50,918 nucleotides of DNA from Patescibacteria group bacterium (GTDB taxonomy: Bacteria > Patescibacteriota > CPR2 > UBA1875): positions 1 to 50,918 of the forward strand of contig JAQVJW010000003.1 in assembly GCA_028694925.1 (NCBI GenBank), read 5' to 3'. Both the position numbers and the translations under genes were made by a program. Each line of letters starts with the position of its first letter. Position 1 is the stretch's first letter. Shown here piece after piece: positions 20,556 through 44,645 of this stretch. The notes under the pieces are model-generated. The model was not told the origin of the DNA. It was given only the letters and a program-made list of their open reading frames with translations, and did not search any database.

Positions 20556-23500
20556 GGAAATGAAAGAAGAACACAGAGCCGAGGATTTTAGCGCTATTAG
20601 AATTTCGATTGCCTCACCAGAAGATATCTTAAAGTGGTCTCACGGCGAGGTCACCAAACCAGAGACAATCAATTATCGTACCCTAAAGCCAGAGAAAGAC
20701 GGTCTATTCTGCGAGCGAATTTTTGGTCCAGATAAAGACTGGGAGTGTTACTGTGGTAAATACAAGAAAATTAGACATAAAGGGGTCGTCTGCGACAAGT
20801 GTGGGGTTGAGGTTACAAGGAGTGTTGTCAGACGTGAACGAATGGGCCATATTGAGCTCGCTGTTCCGGTAACCCATATTTGGTTTCTTCGAGGTGTTCC
20901 ATCCTCAATTGGTCTTGTCCTTGGGATGAGCGTTCGTGACCTTGAAAGGGTAGTCTATTTTATCTCATATATCGTTACTGAGGTAGATGAAGCGGCCAGA
21001 GAAGAGATGAAGAAATCGCTTGATAGGGAATTTAAGGATAAAAAGAAAAAATATACCAAGGAAATAGAAGATGAAAAAGAGCTTAAAGAGAAGCTTGAAC
21101 ACCTAGACCAGAGTCTTAAAGATGCCCGAAGTGAACTTGTCGCGATTCAAAAATATTCGGTTCTCTCGGAACTTAAATATCGAGAGTACTCACTTAAGTA
21201 TGGTAACGTCTTTAAGGCCCAGATCGGGACCGAAGCCATCCTTGAGCTACTTCGCGAAATCGACCTAAAGAAACTAGAAGAGGAACTTGAAGCCGAGGTG
21301 GCAGAGTTTACTGGCCAAAAGAAAAAGAAATCCCTAAAGAGACTCAAGGTTATTCAGGGGCTACTCTCCGCCAATATCAGGCCGGAGTGGATGATCGTCA
21401 AGAACTTACCGGTTATTCCTCCAGGGCTTAGGCCAATGGTTCAGCTTGATGGTGGTCGTTTTGCAACCGCTGATCTTAACGACCTTTATCGAAGGGTTAT
21501 CAACCGCAATAATCGTCTTAAGAAGCTAATTGCTCAGGATGCCCCAGAAGTGATTATCAGAAACGAAAAGAGAATGCTTCAGGAAGCGGTTGACGCCTTA
21601 ATTGATAATAATGCGAGGAGAGATAAAGCCGCCAGTGGTCAAAATAGACGAAAGCTTCGTTCAATCGCTGACATGCTTAAAGGTAAACAAGGCCGTTTTC
21701 GACAGAACCTTCTAGGAAAGCGAGTTGACTACTCCGGTCGTTCTGTAATTGTGGCCGGACCAGAGCTTAAGATGGAGCAGTGTGGTCTTCCGAAGATGAT
21801 GGCTCTTGAGCTCTTTAAGCCATTTGTGATCTCAAAACTTGTTGGTAGCGGTATTGCTCATAATATTAAGAGCGCTTCAAGGATGATTGAAAGAGGTCAT
21901 AGTGAGGTTTGGGATGCCCTTGATGAAGTAATAGAGAATAAATACGTACTTCTAAACCGAGCGCCAACTCTTCACCGTTTGGGTATTCAGGCCTTCTTAC
22001 CAGTCCTAATTGAAGGTAAGGCTATTCAGCTTCATCCTTTAGTTTGTGAGGCCTATAACGCAGACTTTGACGGAGACCAGATGGCGGTTCATGTACCGTT
22101 ATCTCGGATGGCTCAAGCGGAAGCAGAGCAAATCATGATCTCAAGAAGAAACCTCCTAAAGCCAGCTGCTGGTGAACCGGTAGTAAATCCACGTCATGAG
22201 ATGACCCTTGGAATCTACTGGATGACCCAAGAAGAAGAGGGTGCTAAAGGAGAAGGGAAAATCTTCGGAACAGAGGAAGAGGCCATCACTTTCTATAATA
22301 TCGGGGCCGTCTCCCTTCGAGCTAAAGTTAAAATTCGAGTTAAGGGAAAAGTGCTTGATACAACAATCGGTCGGGTAGTCTTTAACCAAAAGCTTCCGGA
22401 AGATATGGAGTTTATAAACGAAGAGATTAGTAAGAAGAAAACGATGGAGATCATCAAAAAGCTCTATGATAATTATGGTTCAGAAGCAACCTCAGAATTC
22501 CTTGATGGAATTAAGGACCTTGGATTTAAGTTTGCTACCAGGTCCGGACTCTCATTCTCTATGGACGATGCCACGGTACCAGTAGAGAAGGAAAAGCTTC
22601 TTGATGAGGCTGAAAAGAAGGTAATCGAAATCAGAAACCAGTTTGATGAAGGGTTCATTACAGAAGAAGAGAAATATACGTTGGCCGTAAAAATTTGGGA
22701 AGAAGCCAAAGAAAAAATCCAAGCAACAATGGAAAAGTCCCAAGATCCTAATTCGTTCCTTACAATCGCAAAAGACTCAGGAGCAAGAGGTGATATTAAG
22801 CAGATTAACCAGATTGCTGGGATGAAGGGTAATGTGATTAATGCGGCCGGAAGAATTATTGAGCTTCCGATAAAATCAAACTATAAAGAAGGACTTTCGG
22901 CGCTTGAATTCTTCATCTCAACCCACGGTACCAGGAAAGGTTTCTCAGACACTGCTCTTCGAACTTCAGACTCCGGTTACCTTACAAGAAGGCTTGTTGA
23001 TGTTGCCCAAGAAGTGACTGTTACCGAAAAGGACTGTGGTACCAAGGACGGACTTTTGGTAACTCGAGAGGAGTCTGTAAAGATCGGGGAAGAATATTCA
23101 CAACGTTTGATCTCCCGCTACACATCTGAAAAAATAGTTGACCCTAAAACTGGCGAAGTAGTCGTCCCGCGGGGCACCCTAATTAATGAGGAAATCTATG
23201 AGTTGATTGAGAAGCATGAGATTAACGAAGTTGTGATCCGTTCAATCCTTGAATGCGATACTCACTGGGGCGTCTGCCAGAAATGTTACGGTGCAGACCT
23301 TGCTTCTGGTGAACCGGTGGCTCTTGGTACGGCGGTCGGAATCATTGCTGCCCAATCGATTGGTGAGCCGGGAACTCAGCTTACGATGCGGACCGTTAAC
23401 ACCGGTGGAATTGTCGGTGTTGACATTACTCAAGGTCTACCACGTGTTCAAGAGCTCTTTGAAGCCAGGAAGCCAAAAGGTGAGGCTGTGCTTGCTGAGA

Positions 23501-24398: not shown

Positions 24399-24806
24399 AT
24401 GCCAACAATTAATCAATTAGTAAGAAAAGGAAGAAAGTCCAAAGGAAGAAAGTCGAAATCACCGGCTCTCGGACGAACTTTTAATACCCTAAAAGATCGT
24501 ACTCGCCCCACAAACTCTCCGTTTAAAAGAGGGGTTTGTGTTAAAGTTTCAACCGCGACACCGAAGAAGCCGAACTCTGCGCTTCGTAAGATTGCTCGTG
24601 TTCGTCTGACAAACGGCCAAGAAGTAACCGCATATATCCCAGGTATTGGTCACAACCTTCAGGAGCACAGCGTTGTTATGATCAGGGGCGGGAGAGTTAA
24701 AGACCTTCCTGGTGTTCGTTACCACATCGTTCGAGGTACCCTTGATACGGCCGGTGTTTCAGACAGAAAAAAAGGTCGCAGTAAATATGGAGCAAAGAAG
24801 GCATAA
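24399..24806 (+). CDS. rpsL: 30S ribosomal protein S12
   Basis: [28 protein letters not shown]. Confidence 0.99.
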
Positions 24807-25282
24807 TGGCTAGAGACCCGAGAAGAACCACAAGGAGAATACCAGCTCCAGACAAACGCTTTGGTAATGTAATGGTGGCTAAATTCATCAATAAGATGAT
24901 GCTGGACGGTAAAAAAGGAACCGCTGAGAATCTTTTTTACTCAGCAATGGATATCGTAGCCGAAAAGACCAAAAAAGACCCTCTTCAGATTTTTGAAACC
25001 GCACTAAAGAATGCCAGCCCAAGCGTTCAGACTCGCTCAAAAAGGGTTGGTGGTTCAAACTACCAAATCCCCGTTGAGGTAAAAGGGGATCGTAAAACTC
25101 ACTATGGTATCGTTTGGATTAGGGATGCGGCGCGGGCTCGTAAGGGAGCTTCGTTTGACAAGAACTTAGCCGCTGAGCTTATGGATGCCGCCGAAGGTCA
25201 AGGGGCAGCTGTAAAGAAAAGAGAAGATACCCATAAGATGGCCGAAGCCAACAAGGCTTTTGCTCACTTTGCTAGATTTTAG
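24806..25282 (+). CDS. rpsG: 30S ribosomal protein S7
   Basis: RVGGSNYQIP, THKMAEANKAFAHF. Confidence 0.99.
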   Translation: MARDPRRTTRRIPAPDKRFGNVMVAKFINKMMLDGKKGTAENLFYSAMDIVAEKTKKDPLQIFETALKNASPSVQTRSKRVGGSNYQIPVEVKGDRKTHYGIVWIRDAARARKGASFDKNLAAELMDAAEGQGAAVKKREDTHKMAEANKAFAHFARF

Positions 25283-25313: not shown

Positions 25314-27413
25314 ATGGCTCGAGATTATAGCTTAGAAAAAACAAGAAATATCGGAATTATCGCTCACATTGATGCCGGAAAGACGACGGTCACCGAGGGT
25401 ATCCTTTATCTTACCGGGAAGACCCATAAGATCGGAGAGGTTCATGAAGGTGAGGCGACGATGGACTGGATGGAGCAAGAGCGAGAACGAGGGATTACGA
25501 TTACCTCGGCTGCGACGACTTGTTTTTGGCAAGATAACCGCATTAATATTATCGATACTCCGGGTCACGTCGACTTTACGGTTGAAGTGGAACGGTCTCT
25601 TAGAGTGCTTGATGGGGCGGTAACTGTTTTTGATGGCAAGATGGGGGTAGAGCCTCAATCCGAGACTGTTTGGCACCAAGCCGATAAATATCACGTCCCC
25701 AGGATGTGCTTTATAAACAAGATCAACCAGACCGGTGGTGATTTCTATAAATCCCTAGATTCAATTCGAGAACGGCTTTCGAAGAATGCTTATCCGATTC
25801 AGATTCCAGTTGGTGTTGAGCAAGGGATCAACGGAGTCGTTGACCTTGTTAAGATGAAAGCATATACCTACACCGAATATCATGACAAGAAATTAGTCGA
25901 GGAAGAGGTTCCGGCCGATCTTCGTGAGAAGGCCGAGAAATATCGAGAAGAACTGCTTGAGAAGGCTGTTGAAGCCGATGAAAAACTAATGGAGAAATAC
26001 CTTTCGGGCGAAGAACTTACGGAAGAAGAGTTTAAAACCGCTATCAGAAAGAGTGTTCTTGCAGGTGATTTCTATCCGGTTTTAGGTGGTGATGGTCGGG
26101 GTGTAATCGTTGAGACTGTGCTAGACGCGGTGATCGATTATCTCCCAAATCCAACCGAAGTCCCAGCCGTAAACGGGATTGATCCCAAAAGTGGCGAAGA
26201 GGTAGAACGGAAGTCTAGCGATAGCGAGCCTTTTGCTGCGCTGGCCTTTAAGATTGCGACTGACCCGTTTGTCGGAAAGTTGGCTTTCTTCCGCGTCTAT
26301 TCTGGTACGATTAAGGCTGGGTCTTATGTTTTAAATGCAACAACCGGAACGAAGGAAAGACTTGGTCGGATCGTAATGCTCCATGCAAACCACCGTGAAG
26401 ATGTTGACGAAGTTTACGCTGGGCAAATTGCTGCTGCAGTTGGGCTTAAGGGGACGACAACCGGTGATACCCTTTGTGATCCTGATAAACCGGCGATCCT
26501 TGAATCAATCACTTTCCCAGACCCTGTTATAACAATCGCAATTGAACCAAAAACTAAAGCTGACCAAGAAAAGATGGGAATTGCTCTTCAAAAGCTAGCC
26601 GAAGAGGACCCAACTTTTGTGGTGAAATCAGACGAAGAGACCGGCCAAACCGTTATCTCTGGAATGGGCGAGCTTCATCTTGAGATTATTGTCGATAGAA
26701 TGAAACGAGAATTCAAGGTAGAAGCGAATGTTGGTAAGCCCCAAGTTGCCTACAAAGAAACCATTAAAGAAAAAGTTCAAGTTGAAGGTAAGTATATCAA
26801 ACAGTCCGGAGGTCGGGGTCAGTATGGCCATGTTTGGCTTGAGCTTGAGCCACTAGAGCCAGGTTCTGGCTTTGAATTTGTTGATAAGATTGTCGGTGGA
26901 ACAGTTCCTAAAGAATACATTAACCCTACTCAGCAAGGTATCGTTGAGGCAATGGCGAATGGTGTTGTGGCCGGCTATCCTGTTGTCGATATGCGAGCCA
27001 CCCTTTACGATGGTTCATATCATGATGTTGACTCATCAGAGATGGCCTTTAAGATCGCAGGTTCAATGGCCCTACAAAGTGGGGTAAGAAAAGCCAAGCC
27101 AGTGATCCTTGAGCCGGTGATGAAGGTAGAAGTTGTAACTCCAGAAGAGTTCATGGGTGATGTGATGGGTGATATTAACGCTAAACGTGGTCGAATCCAA
27201 AATATGGACGACCGAGGCAATGCCAAAGTTATTGATGGCTTTGTACCCCTTTCGGAGATGTTTGGCTATGCCACCCAACTTCGCTCAATGACTCAGGGCA
27301 GGGCCGCTTATGTGATGGAATTCGACCATTATGAGGAAGTACCAGGGAATATCGCTGAGGATATTAAGGCCTCAAGAGGCAGTAAGACTGAGTCAGAGCC
27401 GGAAGAAGCTTAG
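25314..27413 (+). CDS. fusA: Elongation factor G with altered G4/G5 motifs
   Basis: [42 protein letters not shown]; str-operon position. Confidence 0.98.
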
Positions 27414-27441
27414 AGAAAAAGATTAGAGATTAAGTAAGATA

Positions 27442-27475
27442 GAGATAAGGGCAATGCATAAGCGTTGCCTTTATC
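27442..27475 (+). terminator. 15-bp hairpin after fusA, probable terminator
   Basis: agataagggcaatgc-ataa-gcgttgcctttatct (with G-U pairs). Confidence 0.5.
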
Positions 27476-27504
27476 TTGTGGATAAATAAATTACGCGATA
27501 TAAT
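27476..27504 (+). promoter_or_regulatory. Promoter of micro-ORF operon; -35 overlaps a DnaA box (27477-27485)
   Basis: TTGTGG, 17 nt, TATAAT (27499-27504). Confidence 0.6.
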
Positions 27505-27579
27505 ACGCCTACTAACGGTAATGGGTGTTTGGGGTAAGCCGCGCACCTTAACTTGCAAGTTCGGAAAGGGCTGGTGCAC

Positions 27580-27774
27580 ATGAGGAAAGCGTATCAGCTC
27601 CTTCTCTACGCGTCGTATCAGAGCGCCATATTCCTGGCCGTACTCTTCATAAGCCCAAAAGCTGCAAGACGGTTTTTGGGGATTTGGATCGCAACATTCG
27701 TTGGGTATCTTGCTTGTGACATGGGGCCCAAAGACCAGGAAGAGGGTGACCGAGATGCCAGAATGGGCAGTTGA
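27580..27774 (+). CDS. Orphan 64-aa membrane microprotein
   Basis: ATG 27580, two hydrophobic segments then acidic tail; overlaps next ORF. Confidence 0.5.
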   Translation: MRKAYQLLLYASYQSAIFLAVLFISPKAARRFLGIWIATFVGYLACDMGPKDQEEGDRDARMGS

Positions 27775-27928
27775 ATTCCTAACAAGCGAGTACGGGATCC
27801 CAGTTACCCTTGTGGTAACTGCTTTCGTGCTCGTTGGGGTATCGAGGGTGGCCATCCTGTTCATCAGGCCATTCTTCGGGCCTGCACCGAGGACGGGGAA
27901 CATGCCAGAGAACAAATCGAGAAAGTAA
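27755..27928 (+). CDS. Orphan 57-aa single-TM microprotein (MPEWAVEF...)
   Basis: SD GAGGGT then ATG 27755; TM IPVTLVVTAFVLVGVSRVAILFI. Confidence 0.6.
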   Translation: MPEWAVEFLTSEYGIPVTLVVTAFVLVGVSRVAILFIRPFFGPAPRTGNMPENKSRK

Positions 27929-27942
27929 CGGAGGGCGAACCC

Positions 27943-27984
27943 ATGAAGTATGTCAGCGTCGAACGAGAGGGGGTGTCGGCATGA
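27943..27984 (+). CDS. 13-aa peptide MKYVSVEREGVSA
   Basis: SD GGAGG then ATG; stop overlaps the next start (ATGA). Confidence 0.45.
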   Translation: MKYVSVEREGVSA

Positions 27985-28151
27985 CGGCATCTATCGTATC
28001 TTCACTAATCGCAGTAACAGGAGGCGACGGGCTCGGTATTGTGTTCATCTTCTTCGGGTTGCTCCTCACCACATCGTCAGTGGTGCTTGGGGTCTGGGCG
28101 CTTGTGGAACGTTGGTATGACAGGCCCCTAATAGACCCTGGCCCGCAGTAG
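27981..28151 (+). CDS. Orphan 56-aa single-TM microprotein
   Basis: ATGA coupling, SD GAGGGGGTG, TM LGIVFIFFGLLLTTSSVVLGVWALV. Confidence 0.6.
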   Translation: MTASIVSSLIAVTGGDGLGIVFIFFGLLLTTSSVVLGVWALVERWYDRPLIDPGPQ

Positions 28152-28164
28152 AAGGGGGTTTGAA

Positions 28165-28566
28165 GTGACAACGGAGGCGAGGCGCTACCTTGCTGTTCCA
28201 GTACGCATTCTCACGGTGCTGCTTGCTCTTGTGGCGAGTATCGTGGGTTTGCTGAACGGTCTTGGGCGGCTCCTCATAATCTTGGGGTGCTTCTTCTTCG
28301 AAGTCTGGCCGTACTGGATTAGGCAGTCGCTCGAGTATCGTCGAGCGCAACGTCAGGTGAGGCTTGAAGCGAAGCTTGCGACGCTATGTGAGAGCTGTAC
28401 CACGAGGGTAGACAACGACTACATCGGTAGTACACTGACGATCGAGTGCACTTGTCGCAAGTTACAAGCTCTCAAGGCCAGAATTGATCGGATCGATCAC
28501 AACCTGACACTATCTCCGGCATTGCCGGACGAAATGGCTCAGGCTGCGAGCCCAGGCGGGTTCTGA
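28165..28566 (+). CDS. Orphan 133-aa protein: N-terminal TM hairpin plus CxxC...CxC putative metal site
   Basis: GTG after AGGGG; CESC and CTC motifs. Confidence 0.6.
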   Translation: MTTEARRYLAVPVRILTVLLALVASIVGLLNGLGRLLIILGCFFFEVWPYWIRQSLEYRRAQRQVRLEAKLATLCESCTTRVDNDYIGSTLTIECTCRKLQALKARIDRIDHNLTLSPALPDEMAQAASPGGF

Positions 28567-28580
28567 GGGAGGAAGGAGCC

Positions 28581-28757
28581 ATGTATCAATCAGCTCATTC
28601 GACGAAGCCATCCCAGGCAGCCCACTTCGTTGCGTGCATCATCTGCATCGCAGAGGCGCTCAGGGAAGTGGTAGCCCGAGGCATCGACTGGGCGATTCCG
28701 AAGGAGGAAATGCCCGAGGAGCCGGAGGCGTTCGAGCCGAACCCACTCGCTTTGTAG
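28581..28757 (+). CDS. Orphan 58-aa protein (MYQSAHS...CIIC...acidic tail), not in ORF track
   Basis: very strong SD GGAGGAAGGAG then ATG 28581, TAG 28755-28757. Confidence 0.6.
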   Translation: MYQSAHSTKPSQAAHFVACIICIAEALREVVARGIDWAIPKEEMPEEPEAFEPNPLAL

Positions 28758-28817
28758 AGGTCCTCTGAACTTGCTTACCGAAAGGAGGCACACGGGAACA
28801 TGGAGGTTCTCAAGTGT

Positions 28818-28863
28818 CCTTGACGGGCCCGGATCGCAGTTGCGTGACGGGCCCGAAGGCTTT
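28818..28863 (+). terminator. GC hairpin built from two direct copies of TGACGGGCCCG (self-complementary core)
   Basis: copies at 28821-28831 and 28845-28855, flanked by cctt/aagg, followed by cttt. Confidence 0.45.
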
Positions 28864-28875
28864 ATGACAAAAGTC

Positions 28876-28904
28876 TTGCAAACTAGGGAAAAGTTAGGTA
28901 GAAT
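28876..28904 (+). promoter_or_regulatory. tuf promoter; DnaA box downstream at 28943-28951
   Basis: TTGCAA, 17 nt, TAGAAT. Confidence 0.75.
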
Positions 28905-29014
28905 ACGTGATGTAACTCAATAACATGAGTAAACCCACAATTTGTGGATAAGTTTTATTGTCTAAATGCGGAATTATACTAATAAGTCAAAAAAACCGAA
29001 AGGGAGGTAACTAA

Positions 29015-30193
29015 ATGACACAATTTGATCGTTCAAAGCCGCACGTAAATGTTGGTACTATTGGTCACGTTGACCATGGTAAGACAACTCTTACGGCCGC
29101 CATTACAAAAGTCCTATCAAAAGATGGTAAAGCCGAATTTACTGCTTTTGAAAACATCGACAAAGCTCCAGAAGAGAGAGAGCGTGGTATTACTATTGCT
29201 ACCGCTCATGTTGAATACGAGTCTGACAAGCGTCACTATGCACACGTAGACTGTCCAGGGCACGCTGACTATGTTAAAAACATGATTACTGGTGCTGCTC
29301 AGATGGATGGGGCAATTCTCGTTGTAGCTGCTACTGATGGTCCAATGCCTCAAACAAGAGAGCACTTACTGCTTGCAAAGCAGGTAAACGTACCAGCTGT
29401 TGTTGTCTTTATGAACAAAGTTGATATGGTCCAAGATGAAGAGATGCTTGACCTTGTAGAGATGGAGATCAGAGAGCTTCTTACAAAGTACGAATTTGAT
29501 GGTGATAATGCAAAGATTATCCGTGGTTCTGCTCTTAAGGCTCTTGAAGGTGATGCTAAATATGAAGAAGGTATTAAAGAGCTCATAACCGCTCTTGATG
29601 AAGCTATTCCAGAGCCAAAGCGTGATATCGACAAGCCTTTCAAGATGCCCGTCGAAGACGTTTTCTCGATTAAGGGCCGGGGTACAGTTGCTACTGGTAG
29701 AATCGAGCAAGGTGTTGTTAAGGTTAACGAAGAGATTGAGATCGTTGGTATTAAAGACACCAGAAAGACTGTTGTGACTGGAGTCGAAATGTTCAAGAAG
29801 ACTCTTGATCAGGGTCAAGCTGGTGATAATGCTGGTATCCTTCTTCGTGGTATTGAGAAAGATGACATTGAACGTGGTATGGTTCTTGCTAAGCCTGGTT
29901 CAATTACACCTCATACTGAGTTTGAAGCTAAGATCTATGTTCTAACTAAAGAAGAAGGTGGACGACATACTCCATTCTTTAAGGGTTACAAGCCCCAGTT
30001 CTACATCGGTACTACTGATGTAACTGGTGAGGTTATCCTCCCCGAAGGTACCGAGATGGTAATGCCGGGTGATAGCGTAGAAGTAACCGTTAAGCTGATG
30101 CAGCCAATTGCGATGGACGAAGGTACTAGATTCGCGATTCGTGAAGGTGGTAAAACAGTCGGAGCCGGTGCCGTATCAAAGATCAATAAGTAA
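29015..30193 (+). CDS. tuf: Elongation factor Tu
   Basis: [27 protein letters not shown]; SD GGGAGGT. Confidence 0.99.
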
Positions 30194-42804: not shown

Positions 42805-44115
42805 ATGAAAAAGTTCTTGGAAATAATCTCAGACAAAAATCTCTTAAAGAAGATTTTATTTATCTTTTTTATCCTTTTATTGTTTCGAGTAGCTGCTCAT
42901 GTTCCGATCCCAGGCCCAGATCCTGAAAATGTTCGAAACTTTCTCGCTGAAGCCTTTAAAGGTAATTCTTTATTATCATTTTTGGATATCTTTTCTGGTG
43001 GTGGTATCTCTCGATTTTCGGTTGTGATGATGGGTCTTGGACCATATATCACGGCCTCGATTATGATCCAACTACTGACGATGATTTCGCCAAAGCTTGA
43101 GGCCCTCTCTAAAGAGGGTGAGGAAGGACATCGGAAGATGAACCAGTATTCCCGTCTTCTAACCTTACCCCTTGCCTTTGTTGAAGGTTATGCTGGAATC
43201 AGGTTCCTTCAGTACTCAGGCTCTCAGGCTGGGACCGACTTTTTAGGGAACATTACGTTAGCTGATTGGGGGCTGATGCTCCTTTCAATTGCAGCTGGGA
43301 CGATGTTTTTGATGTGGCTTGGAGAGCTCATTACTGATAAGGGGCTTGGGAACGGAGTGTCGATAATCATCTTTGCTGGGATTATAGCAGGTCTTCCTCA
43401 GTCGGTTGGTCAGGCTGTTCAAAAAATCATTATCTCAGAATACGATCCAACTCAAATCATGACCCAAGCAGGCATTTTAGTCGCGATAGTAATAGCTATC
43501 ATCGCCATTATATTTGTTACCGAGGGCCAGCGTAGATTACCGATTTCTTACGCTAAGAAAGTTCGAGGGGCCAAGCTTTATGGTGGGATTGAAAGTTTCC
43601 TCCCGATAAAGCTTAATATGTCTGGAGTTATCCCAATTATCTTTGCCGGAGCTTTTATGAACCTACCGACAATGATTGGATTCTTCTCACAAGTCAAAAA
43701 TCAAACAATTGCAAATGCCGCAACCTGGATCCAGGAGACTTTTAATCCCCAGGGGCTCCCGTATGCCGTAATGTTCTTCGTCCTTGTCTTTGCCTTTACT
43801 TTTTTTTCAACCTTCCTTTATTTTAAGCCTAAGGATGTAGCCGAGAACCTTCAAAAGCATGGCGGCTTTATCCCAGGGATTAGGCCGGGGACTCAAACTG
43901 AGAAGTATCTTTCCTGGCTTATAAACCGAGTGACCTTATGGGGGGCAATCTTCCTTTCAGCGATAGCTGTCCTCCCGTTTATTATTCAAATATATGCTAA
44001 TGTTGGAAATATCATCATCGGTGGTACCGGGCTTCTGATCGTAGTCGGAGTTGCGATTGAGATTAAAAACCAGATTGATGCGCAGATTGTGACGAAGTCT
44101 TATGAGGGGATCTAG
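42805..44115 (+). CDS. secY: Preprotein translocase subunit SecY
   Basis: [47 protein letters not shown]. Confidence 0.98.
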
Positions 44116-44645
44116 TGATTACCTTTATTACAGGCAATCAAAACAAACTTAGAGAAGCTAGGGAGATTTTGGGTGACGTAGAGGGACACGAGATTGACTT
44201 ACCAGAGATTCAAGAGGTTGATCCTCATATAATAATTAAGGCAAAGATGGATGAGGCAAAGAAGCAAGGTCTTAAGAACTTTATTGTTGAAGACACCTCA
44301 CTATATTTTGATGGCCTTAATGGTTTACCAGGACCTCTGATTAAATGGTTCTTGGACAAACTCGGTAATGATGGACTTTATGATTTAGTTAAAGACAAGG
44401 ACCCGAAGGCTCAAGCTAAAACTATTATTGGTTACTCCGATAAAGAAGGTAAAATTAGCTATCACGAAGGAATAATAGAGGGAGAAATAGTGGCTCCAAA
44501 AGGAGACACTAATTTTGGTTGGGACCCGATATTTAAGCCGGATGGACACGACAAAACCTTTGCCGAAATGGGCCCAGAAGAGAAGAACACGGTTAGTATG
44601 CGGAAAATGGCTTTAGAAGAGTTAAAAAAATACCTAACCGAATAA
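44115..44645 (+). CDS. Ham1/RdgB-family non-canonical purine NTP pyrophosphatase (ITP/XTP/dITP)
   Basis: TGNQNK, EDTSL, GLPGP, FGWDPIF; terminal SHR motif is SMR; GTG overlaps secY stop. Confidence 0.9.

Follow-up and report, generated by a model that had tools for sequence, protein, structure and literature searches.

A putative second architecture of the base pocket in the only elongation factor G of a large branch of Patescibacteria

Introduction

In Ras-like GTPases, the Asp of the G4 motif (NKxD) accepts hydrogen bonds from N1-H and N2-H2 of guanine, the hydroxyl of the G5 Ser contacts this Asp, and the backbone NH of the residue following the Ser reads O6. The NKxD Asp is among the most conserved functional residues in biology and represents the textbook basis of guanine specificity in the translational GTPases. 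In the stretch of DNA analysed here (50,918 nucleotides of contig JAQVJW010000003.1, from an ultra-small Patescibacteria group bacterium of the lineage CPR2; hereafter, the window), the fusA gene, coding for elongation factor G (EF-G), carries Asn in place of this Asp and a rewritten G5 loop. The question raised by this locus is, then, how the base is read by such a factor and which nucleotide drives translocation, all the more so because an essential, single-copy EF-G is found without the NKxD Asp over a large and ancient radiation that includes human-associated Saccharibacteria.

A computational survey of the EF-G family described G4 (NKxD) and G5 (gSAx) as conserved in both EFG I and EFG II (PMC3150367), and no description of an NKIN/GDGRG EF-G, or of translation factors with altered G4/G5 in the candidate phyla radiation (CPR), was found by full-text searches of the literature. 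New here are a tree that includes Dojkabacteria and shows a single origin, the finding of a canonical cassette acquired by recombination, and a test of guanylate kinase with a negative outcome.

Results and Discussion

Both base-recognition motifs are rewritten in an otherwise canonical EF-G

The original prediction, made from the letters of the window, described an EF-G with intact G1-G3, NKIN at nt 25716–25727 as G4 and a rewritten G5, and both codons and alignment confirmed this description. The G4 codons AAC AAG ATC AAC encode N135-K-I-N138, thus departing from NKxD at its fourth position, and the G5 codons GGT GGT GAT GGT CGG GGT encode G258-G-D-G-R-G263, with G-D-G-R (nt 26088–26099) in the place of G-[ST]-[AS]-x. 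The span nt 26085–26102, previously assigned to [10 protein letters not shown], does contain GGDGRG, but the 'L' lies at nt 26082–26084. The resulting loop is one residue shorter than the canonical G[ST]A[LFY]KNKG.

The predicted protein scored 1125.8 bits against TIGR00484 (EF-G; cut-off 659.4), with residues 1–688 on positions 1–689 of the 691 of the profile, and the Pfam domains GTP_EFTU, EF-G_D2, EFG_III, EFG_IV and EFG_C were found in the G(+G')-II-III-IV-V architecture of EF-G. Scores against the EF-G2/EFG II and Tet(M)-type models remained under their cut-offs (NF009377, 546.5 vs. 890; NF058620, 528.5 vs. 1000; tet_protect, 390.3 vs. 775), and the YchF family was absent among the NCBIfam matches of the protein. 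The EF-G of T. thermophilus, having NKMD and GSALKNKG at the two sites, aligned with it end to end (940 bits). An ordinary EF-G fold was obtained in the AF2 model, with a mean predicted local distance difference test (pLDDT) value of 82 and values of about 80–88 in the blocks holding G4 and G5; comparison with solved EF-Gs (Foldseek) returned template-modelling (TM) scores up to 0.85–0.92 at 55–62% identity. Therefore, the window EF-G resembles the canonical bacterial EF-G (FusA; EFG I; TIGR00484; T. thermophilus 1DAR/2BM0, S. aureus 2XEX, E. coli 7N2C) in length, domain order, operon position, G1-G3 with the catalytic His, predicted fold and the tip of domain IV (SYHDVDSSE, intact), with its best PDB relatives at ≈940 bits. 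On the contrary, it differs in having NKIN instead of NK[MLI]D and the shortened G-D-G-R-G instead of G-[ST]-[AS]-x-[KR]-N-K-G, as well as at M110, Q139, G142 and D191. An additional P-loop change, AHIHAGKT instead of AHIDAGKT, was observed beside NKIN/GGDGRG in the EF-G of one relative, a Ca. Nanosyncoccus sp. (L134).

When EF-Gs of this type (hereafter, variants) were compared with canonical ones, about 15 positions were seen to co-vary (Table 1), M110, I137, Q139, G142 and D191 belonging to the second shell of the pocket. The core kept constant over all variants consists of N138, G259, D260 and R262, with a single exception in which R262 is replaced by Lys (GGDSK). In an alignment of 48 sequences, with homologues 70–88% identical, N135, K136, I137, N138, Q139, G259, D260, G261, R262 and G263 were invariant, and M110 was invariant too.

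Table 1. Positions that distinguish variant from canonical EF-Gs (numbering of the window protein)
Position	Variant	Canonical
110	M	G/A
137	I	mostly M
138	N	D (100%; 86/86 canonical EF-Gs)
139	Q	R/I/K
142	G	A
146	K	R/N/M/H
168	F in 93% (V in the window protein)	A/S/Q/K
191	D	G (99%)
194	L	I/Y/F/V
258	G	C
260	D	S/T
261	G	A/S
263-265	G-V-I	N-K-G

The one-residue gap of the G5 loop was placed differently by HMMER and MAFFT, and D260 may fall on the Ser of G-S-A or on its Ala. The alignment favoured here puts D260 at the canonical Ser/Thr position and G261, again a small residue, at the Ala/Ser position. Indeed, residue 258 (G/S/A/C) behaves as the canonical C/T/A/V, G259 is invariant as the canonical Gly is, and residue 261 (G/S/A) behaves as the canonical A/S; the same placement is suggested by a parallel case in EF-Tu, described below, where no indel occurs.

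The two changes are coupled and of single origin

Among 240 unique full-length EF-Gs, Asn occupied the G4 Asp position in 154, all of which (154/154) had G-D in G5, and none of the 86 with Asp had it (0/86), an association well beyond chance and in accordance with the earlier claim that both motifs had changed together. In a tree inferred without the G4 and G5 columns, the variants formed one clade (158 tips, support 93), which includes Saccharibacteria, Dojkabacteria, WWE3, Berkelbacteria, CPR2 and others; the mapping of NKxN/GDGRG on the EF-G phylogeny, proposed in the original prediction, thus returned a single clade. The redesign of the base pocket of EF-G is ancient, arose once and is strictly maintained.

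The sole canonical members of the variant clade are four sequences of family f3 (L026, L027, L029 and L030, from genomes G020, G006, G018 and G022, respectively), giving two changes on the tree. In a tree of the G' insert only (residues 149–254), these four sequences grouped with canonical CPR EF-Gs (support 87). In the tree of the rest of the protein, on the contrary, they were sister to the f3 variants (support 97), and their domains III–V grouped with the NKIN type of that family. A sliding comparison of identity delimited the canonical-like tract of the four proteins to residues ≈136–280. By these sequence comparisons, L026, L027, L029 and L030 are recombinants that returned to the canonical state via a swapped G4-G'-G5 cassette. 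Since G4, G' and G5 adjoin one another along the chain, they are inherited as one cassette, and a canonical cassette is evidently functional in a variant backbone, as judged from these genes. The recombinants of family f3 offer natural matched controls for biochemistry.

Distribution across Patescibacteria

The genome to which the window belongs (665 kb in 32 contigs, 92%-complete) yielded no second EF-G, the other matches of an EF-G query being LepA and EF-Tu only. A single EF-G was likewise found in each of 40 relatives, with NKIN and GGDG-RGV in 23 of the 30 sequences fetched. All of the 120 best homologues among 5.8 billion proteins carried NKIN and GDGRG, under names that include CPR2, WS5, Howlettbacteria and Patescibacteria. 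Of 401 evenly sampled Patescibacteria genomes, 107, belonging to 87 of the 320 genera, contained the pattern NKINQ[TI]GG, once per genome and within fusA, and the reversed control pattern gave no match in the same genomes; the 107/401 is a lower bound, NKLN and NKINL variants being uncounted, and the share of the sampled Patescibacteria with such an EF-G can be put at between about one quarter and one third. More than one fusA was found in none of the N-type genomes among the 401, save for fragmented assemblies in which the gene is split into pieces. The possibility, raised with the original prediction, that a canonical EF-G encoded elsewhere does the job is thus refuted for this assembly and for the N-type relatives sampled.

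The search was extended to 185,579 species. Back-translated NKINQ[TI]GG[DN]F was found in at least 117 of them; the matches listed were mostly titled Saccharibacteria/Saccharimonadales and also comprised Nanosyncoccus, WWE3, Berkelbacteria, Doudnabacteria and the complete genome of Ca. Minimicrobia vallesae. A scan with Y-x-VPR-xx-F-x-NK[LF]N added 69 further species, most of them titled as Patescibacteria (Dojkabacteria/WS6, some Saccharibacteria and WWE3), with GGD[SGA]R as G5 where readable, and NKMN occurred in the same context in one match, together with GGDSR. The remaining NK[LF]N/NKMN matches were unclassified 'bacterium' metagenome-assembled genomes and a few entries titled Gammaproteobacteria or Woesearchaeota, taxa known by title alone. 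A related-locus search with the whole protein retrieved mostly distant canonical EF-Gs, which were used as outgroup only.

The four NKIN codons vary synonymously over the 107 genomes (AAT/AAC, AAA/AAG, ATC/ATT/ATA and AAT/AAC), which indicates purifying selection on the amino acids beyond mere inheritance.

A parallel trade in the EF-Tu of Dojkabacteria

The phylum was also searched for NKFG followed by G-D-A at the spacing of EF-Tu. In families f24 and f139, EF-Tu reads FINKFG[ED]AD ... VGDALKA. The loci fetched provided 110 unique EF-Tu sequences, of which 82 had an acid at G4 only and 23 at the G5 Ser position only; no sequence had it at both. The EF-Tu of Dojkabacteria combines NKFG/NTFG with GDAL/GDAK, and the Ser-to-Asp change is here gapless and unambiguous. 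Judging from the aligned sequences, this EF-Tu has made the same trade independently, giving up the acid of G4 and acquiring one in G5, in a pattern that amounts to about two events only.

Dojkabacteria (WS6) EF-Tu and variant EF-G occur in the same phylum, and in genomes whose EF-G is of the variant type too. However, the former is another paralogue, its G4 residue is Gly and not Asn, its G5 has no indel and the Lys of NKxD is often lost. The EF-Tu of the window genome differs from it in being fully canonical (FMNKVDMV ... RGSALKA), as the original prediction had read it (NKVD/GSAL; Table 2).

Further diversity was seen at these sites in the EF-Tu of L251–L256 and of many of L260–L328 (Dojkabacteria/WS6), with NKFG, NTFG or NQFG as G4 and GDAL, GDAK or IDAF as G5. 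G4 motifs devoid of the Lys, namely NVFD, NIFD, NMFD and NIFE, were also present in Dojkabacteria.

A proposed move of the carboxylate within the pocket, with GTP probably retained

We lean towards the view that the carboxylate reading guanine has left G4 and now stands at the Ser position of G5, and that the factor still uses GTP. In this arrangement, Asp260 would accept the hydrogen bonds of guanine N1-H/N2-H2 in place of the G4 Asp, Asn138 would pair with Asp260, and the backbone amide following Asp260 (residue 261) would still read O6. EF-G would thus remain a ribosome-stimulated GTPase performing translocation with GTP, its purine affinity or selectivity being perhaps altered. The sequences point to a second architecture of the base pocket in EF-G, and the occurrence of the same trade in the EF-Tu paralogue points to compensation rather than to loss of guanine reading. 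If GTP is kept, the variant would show that guanine can be read in the Ras-like fold in a second, compensated way that arose naturally, useful both for understanding nucleotide specificity and for its engineering.

There are precedents for a guanine-reading acid placed elsewhere. In a study dealing with the energetics of guanine-base contacts, the class termed D/E plus, in which NKxD is missing and an Asp or Glu from elsewhere reads N1/N2, accounted for 20.5% of 298 PDB complexes (PMC11594714). The proposed EF-G is similar to these binders in that N1/N2 would be read by an acid outside NKxD, but they mostly belong to other folds or families, and no translational GTPase of the D/E plus kind was found in the literature searched.

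Several points weigh against this arrangement. The Asn138-Asp260-guanine geometry and the retained GTP specificity are what we infer from the motifs, their invariance and the EF-Tu parallel. Asp260 could equally accept a hydrogen bond of adenine N6-H2, with Asn138 as the donor to adenine N1, a combination that fits an ATP pocket, and the Gly-rich loop GGDGRG could flip peptide planes. The number of coupled events is small, with a single gain and a single reversal by cassette in EF-G and two changes in EF-Tu, and a test of independent pairs on EF-Tu was without statistical power. Five of the 110 EF-Tu sequences, all from Dojkabacteria, carry the acid at neither site, a carboxylate being thus not strictly needed in the EF-Tu paralogue. 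Finally, engineered Asp-to-Asn mutants lose GTP/GDP binding (Ypt1 D124N, PMC2120555).

Alternative readings

The alternative that survives best, possible though unlikely, is a changed or broadened fuel, the rebuilt pocket letting EF-G use ATP or any purine nucleoside triphosphate (NTP) for translocation. Natural use of ATP within the TRAFAC GTPase fold is known for YchF/OLA1, a precedent for a G4 change accompanied by a change of nucleotide; in YchF, G4 reads NxxE and the domain architecture differs. The window EF-G differs from it in keeping the Asn-Lys of NKxD (NKIN) and in giving no YchF match. The chemistry just mentioned, with Asn138 as a donor to adenine N1, Asp260 as an acceptor for N6-H2 and a flexible, Gly-rich G5 loop, is in accordance with adenine being typically recognised via N1 and N6 (PMC11594714), and the loss of GTP/GDP binding in the engineered Asp-to-Asn GTPases (PMC2120555) speaks for the same reading. 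Moreover, the rewriting of both motifs with invariant new residues, together with some 15 co-varying positions that include M110 in the second shell and D191 in G', would be surprisingly extensive for a relocation of a purely neutral kind. On the other side, a carboxylate still flanks the Watson-Crick edge, as is the case in guanine readers, the G-D-A-L variant of EF-Tu keeps the canonical Ala-Leu backbone that reads O6, a canonical cassette has been swapped into a variant backbone with no other changes, suggesting interchangeable types, and no link to guanine-nucleotide metabolism was found. It seems rather unlikely that translocation is no longer strictly GTP-driven in a large and ancient branch of Patescibacteria (at least 27% of the sampled species), and elongation by EF-Tu likewise in Dojkabacteria. 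Were the fuel changed, the variant would provide the first natural case of such a change among the translational 'GTPases' acting in the elongation cycle, and the use of another nucleotide would change the view of translation energetics in minimal, host-dependent cells. The nucleotide driving this ribosome is directly testable, in cultivable relatives too, and the window EF-G, being 55–62% identical to characterised EF-Gs (Foldseek), may work on standard laboratory ribosomes.

The original prediction had made the use of other nucleotides plausible by the scavenging of nucleotides, a rationale that the present data do not sustain: five other GTPases keep NKxD and guanylate kinase does not track the variant across the phylum. 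In the window genome, G4 is NKVD in EF-Tu, NKID in LepA, IF-2 and Obg, and NKID and NKWD in Der, all identities being confirmed by NCBIfam. The Asp kept in all of these factors indicates that the change is specific to EF-G and that the cell is still GTP-dependent. Guanylate kinase (PF00625) was not detectable in the window genome or its family; in family f3 it was present in 4/4 genomes with canonical EF-G vs. 0/5 of the variant genomes searched. As a general explanation the link was rejected, the enzyme being found in 38/107 variant vs. 130/294 other genomes (Fisher p = 0.14, with no phylogenetic correction).

It is improbable, in our opinion, that GTP is kept and that the redesign, instead of being a neutral and compensated exchange, serves to weaken or retune base binding, so that GDP would leave faster, (p)ppGpp or another guanine-nucleotide regulator would bind less tightly, or the factor would be tuned to low GTP pools. 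Fixation throughout the lineage and the extra co-varying residues do suggest an adaptive change, and the frequent loss of the NKxD Lys in the EF-Tu of Dojkabacteria (NTFG, NVFD, NIFD) is consistent with a general loosening of base pockets in these lineages. However, EF-G already exchanges its nucleotide without a guanine-nucleotide exchange factor (GEF), so that faster release would have no obvious benefit, and no tie between the variant and guanine metabolism was seen in the genomes analysed.

An EF-G specific for XTP/ITP is very improbable. It was proposed by analogy with engineered GTPases such as EF-Tu D138N, which, like Ras D119N, Ypt1 D124N and others, have the same Asp-to-Asn change at the fourth G4 position, and for Ypt1 D124N this change alone is known to abolish GTP/GDP binding and to create XTP dependence (PMC2120555). 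These are, however, single-site laboratory mutants with G5 intact, whereas the window protein adds an invariant Asp at the Ser/Thr position of G5, a shorter loop and changes in the second shell, and represents the only EF-G of viable organisms. The new Asp beside the Asn, by keeping a carboxylate in the pocket, should repel xanthine O2 or the xanthine anion. In addition, XTP and ITP arise by damage and occur in traces, the window codes for an RdgB/HAM1-like XTP/ITP pyrophosphatase (Table 2), and in the EF-Tu of Dojkabacteria, where the parallel trade occurred, the G4 residue is Gly and not Asn. Neither XTP/ITP nor 'any NTP', as originally drawn from the mutant analogy, is thus supported in that form. 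Among 26 close relatives, no more than 10 had the RdgB/HAM1-like pyrophosphatase.

Errors of sequencing or assembly, contamination and a decaying or non-functional gene can be practically dismissed, given the motifs in more than 150 independently assembled species, the synonymous codon variation, the full-length frame, the intact catalytic motifs and the canonical operon of what is the only fusA.

Genomic context

The assignment of this EF-G to the str operon was confirmed, the gene order being rpoC, rpsL, rpsG, fusA, a 1.6-kb insert and tuf (Table 2). Rfam and tRNA scans of the window returned nothing relevant.

Table 2. Features of the window (nt positions within the 50,918-nucleotide stretch)
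Feature	Position	Strand	Evidence or remark
rpsL	24399..24806	+	TIGR00981, 215.9 bits; str operon, upstream of fusA
rpsG	24806..25282	+	TIGR01029, 184 bits; str operon, upstream of fusA
fusA, sole EF-G, 699 aa, five-domain	25314..27413	+	ORF, TIGR00484, Pfam
G1, P-loop AHIDAGKT, canonical	25362..25385	+	
G2/switch I RGITI, canonical	25488..25502	+	
G3/switch II DTPGH incl. catalytic His, canonical	25554..25568	+	
M110, second-shell, just after strand beta4	25641..25643	+	Met in 100% of variants vs. 1% of canonical (mostly G/A)
G4 region [11 protein letters not shown]138	25716..25745	+	N138 in place of the guanine-reading Asp; I137, Q139 and G142 variant-specific too
G' insert between G4 and G5, residues 149–254	25758..26075	+	variant-specific D191, L194; F168 in 93% of variants (Val here)
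G5 loop GGDGRG	26085..26102	+	D260 = 26091-26093, R262 = 26097-26099 (invariant)
tuf (EF-Tu)	29015..30193	+	canonical NKVD 29414-29425, GSAL 29525-29536
RdgB/HAM1-like non-canonical purine NTP (XTP/ITP) pyrophosphatase	44115..44645	+	PF01725, 150 bits; TIGR00042, 134.9 bits, under the 145.35 cut-off

The insert between fusA and tuf (nt 27414–29014) contains small ORFs with predicted membrane helices and no Pfam match (nt 27834–28151, 105 aa; nt 28165–28566, 133 aa). Inserts of ≈0.7–1.5 kb were found in family f1; outside this family, tuf follows fusA after ≈100–150 nt.

Two peculiarities were observed in the genes upstream. The S12 protein encoded by rpsL is 135 aa long compared with a model of 124 positions, the surplus lying near the N-terminus, where the sequence is rich in Lys/Arg ([13 protein letters not shown]). 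In rpoC, the trigger loop of the beta' subunit (nt 23386–23409) reads QLTMRTVNTGG, with Val-Asn where Phe-His is usual.

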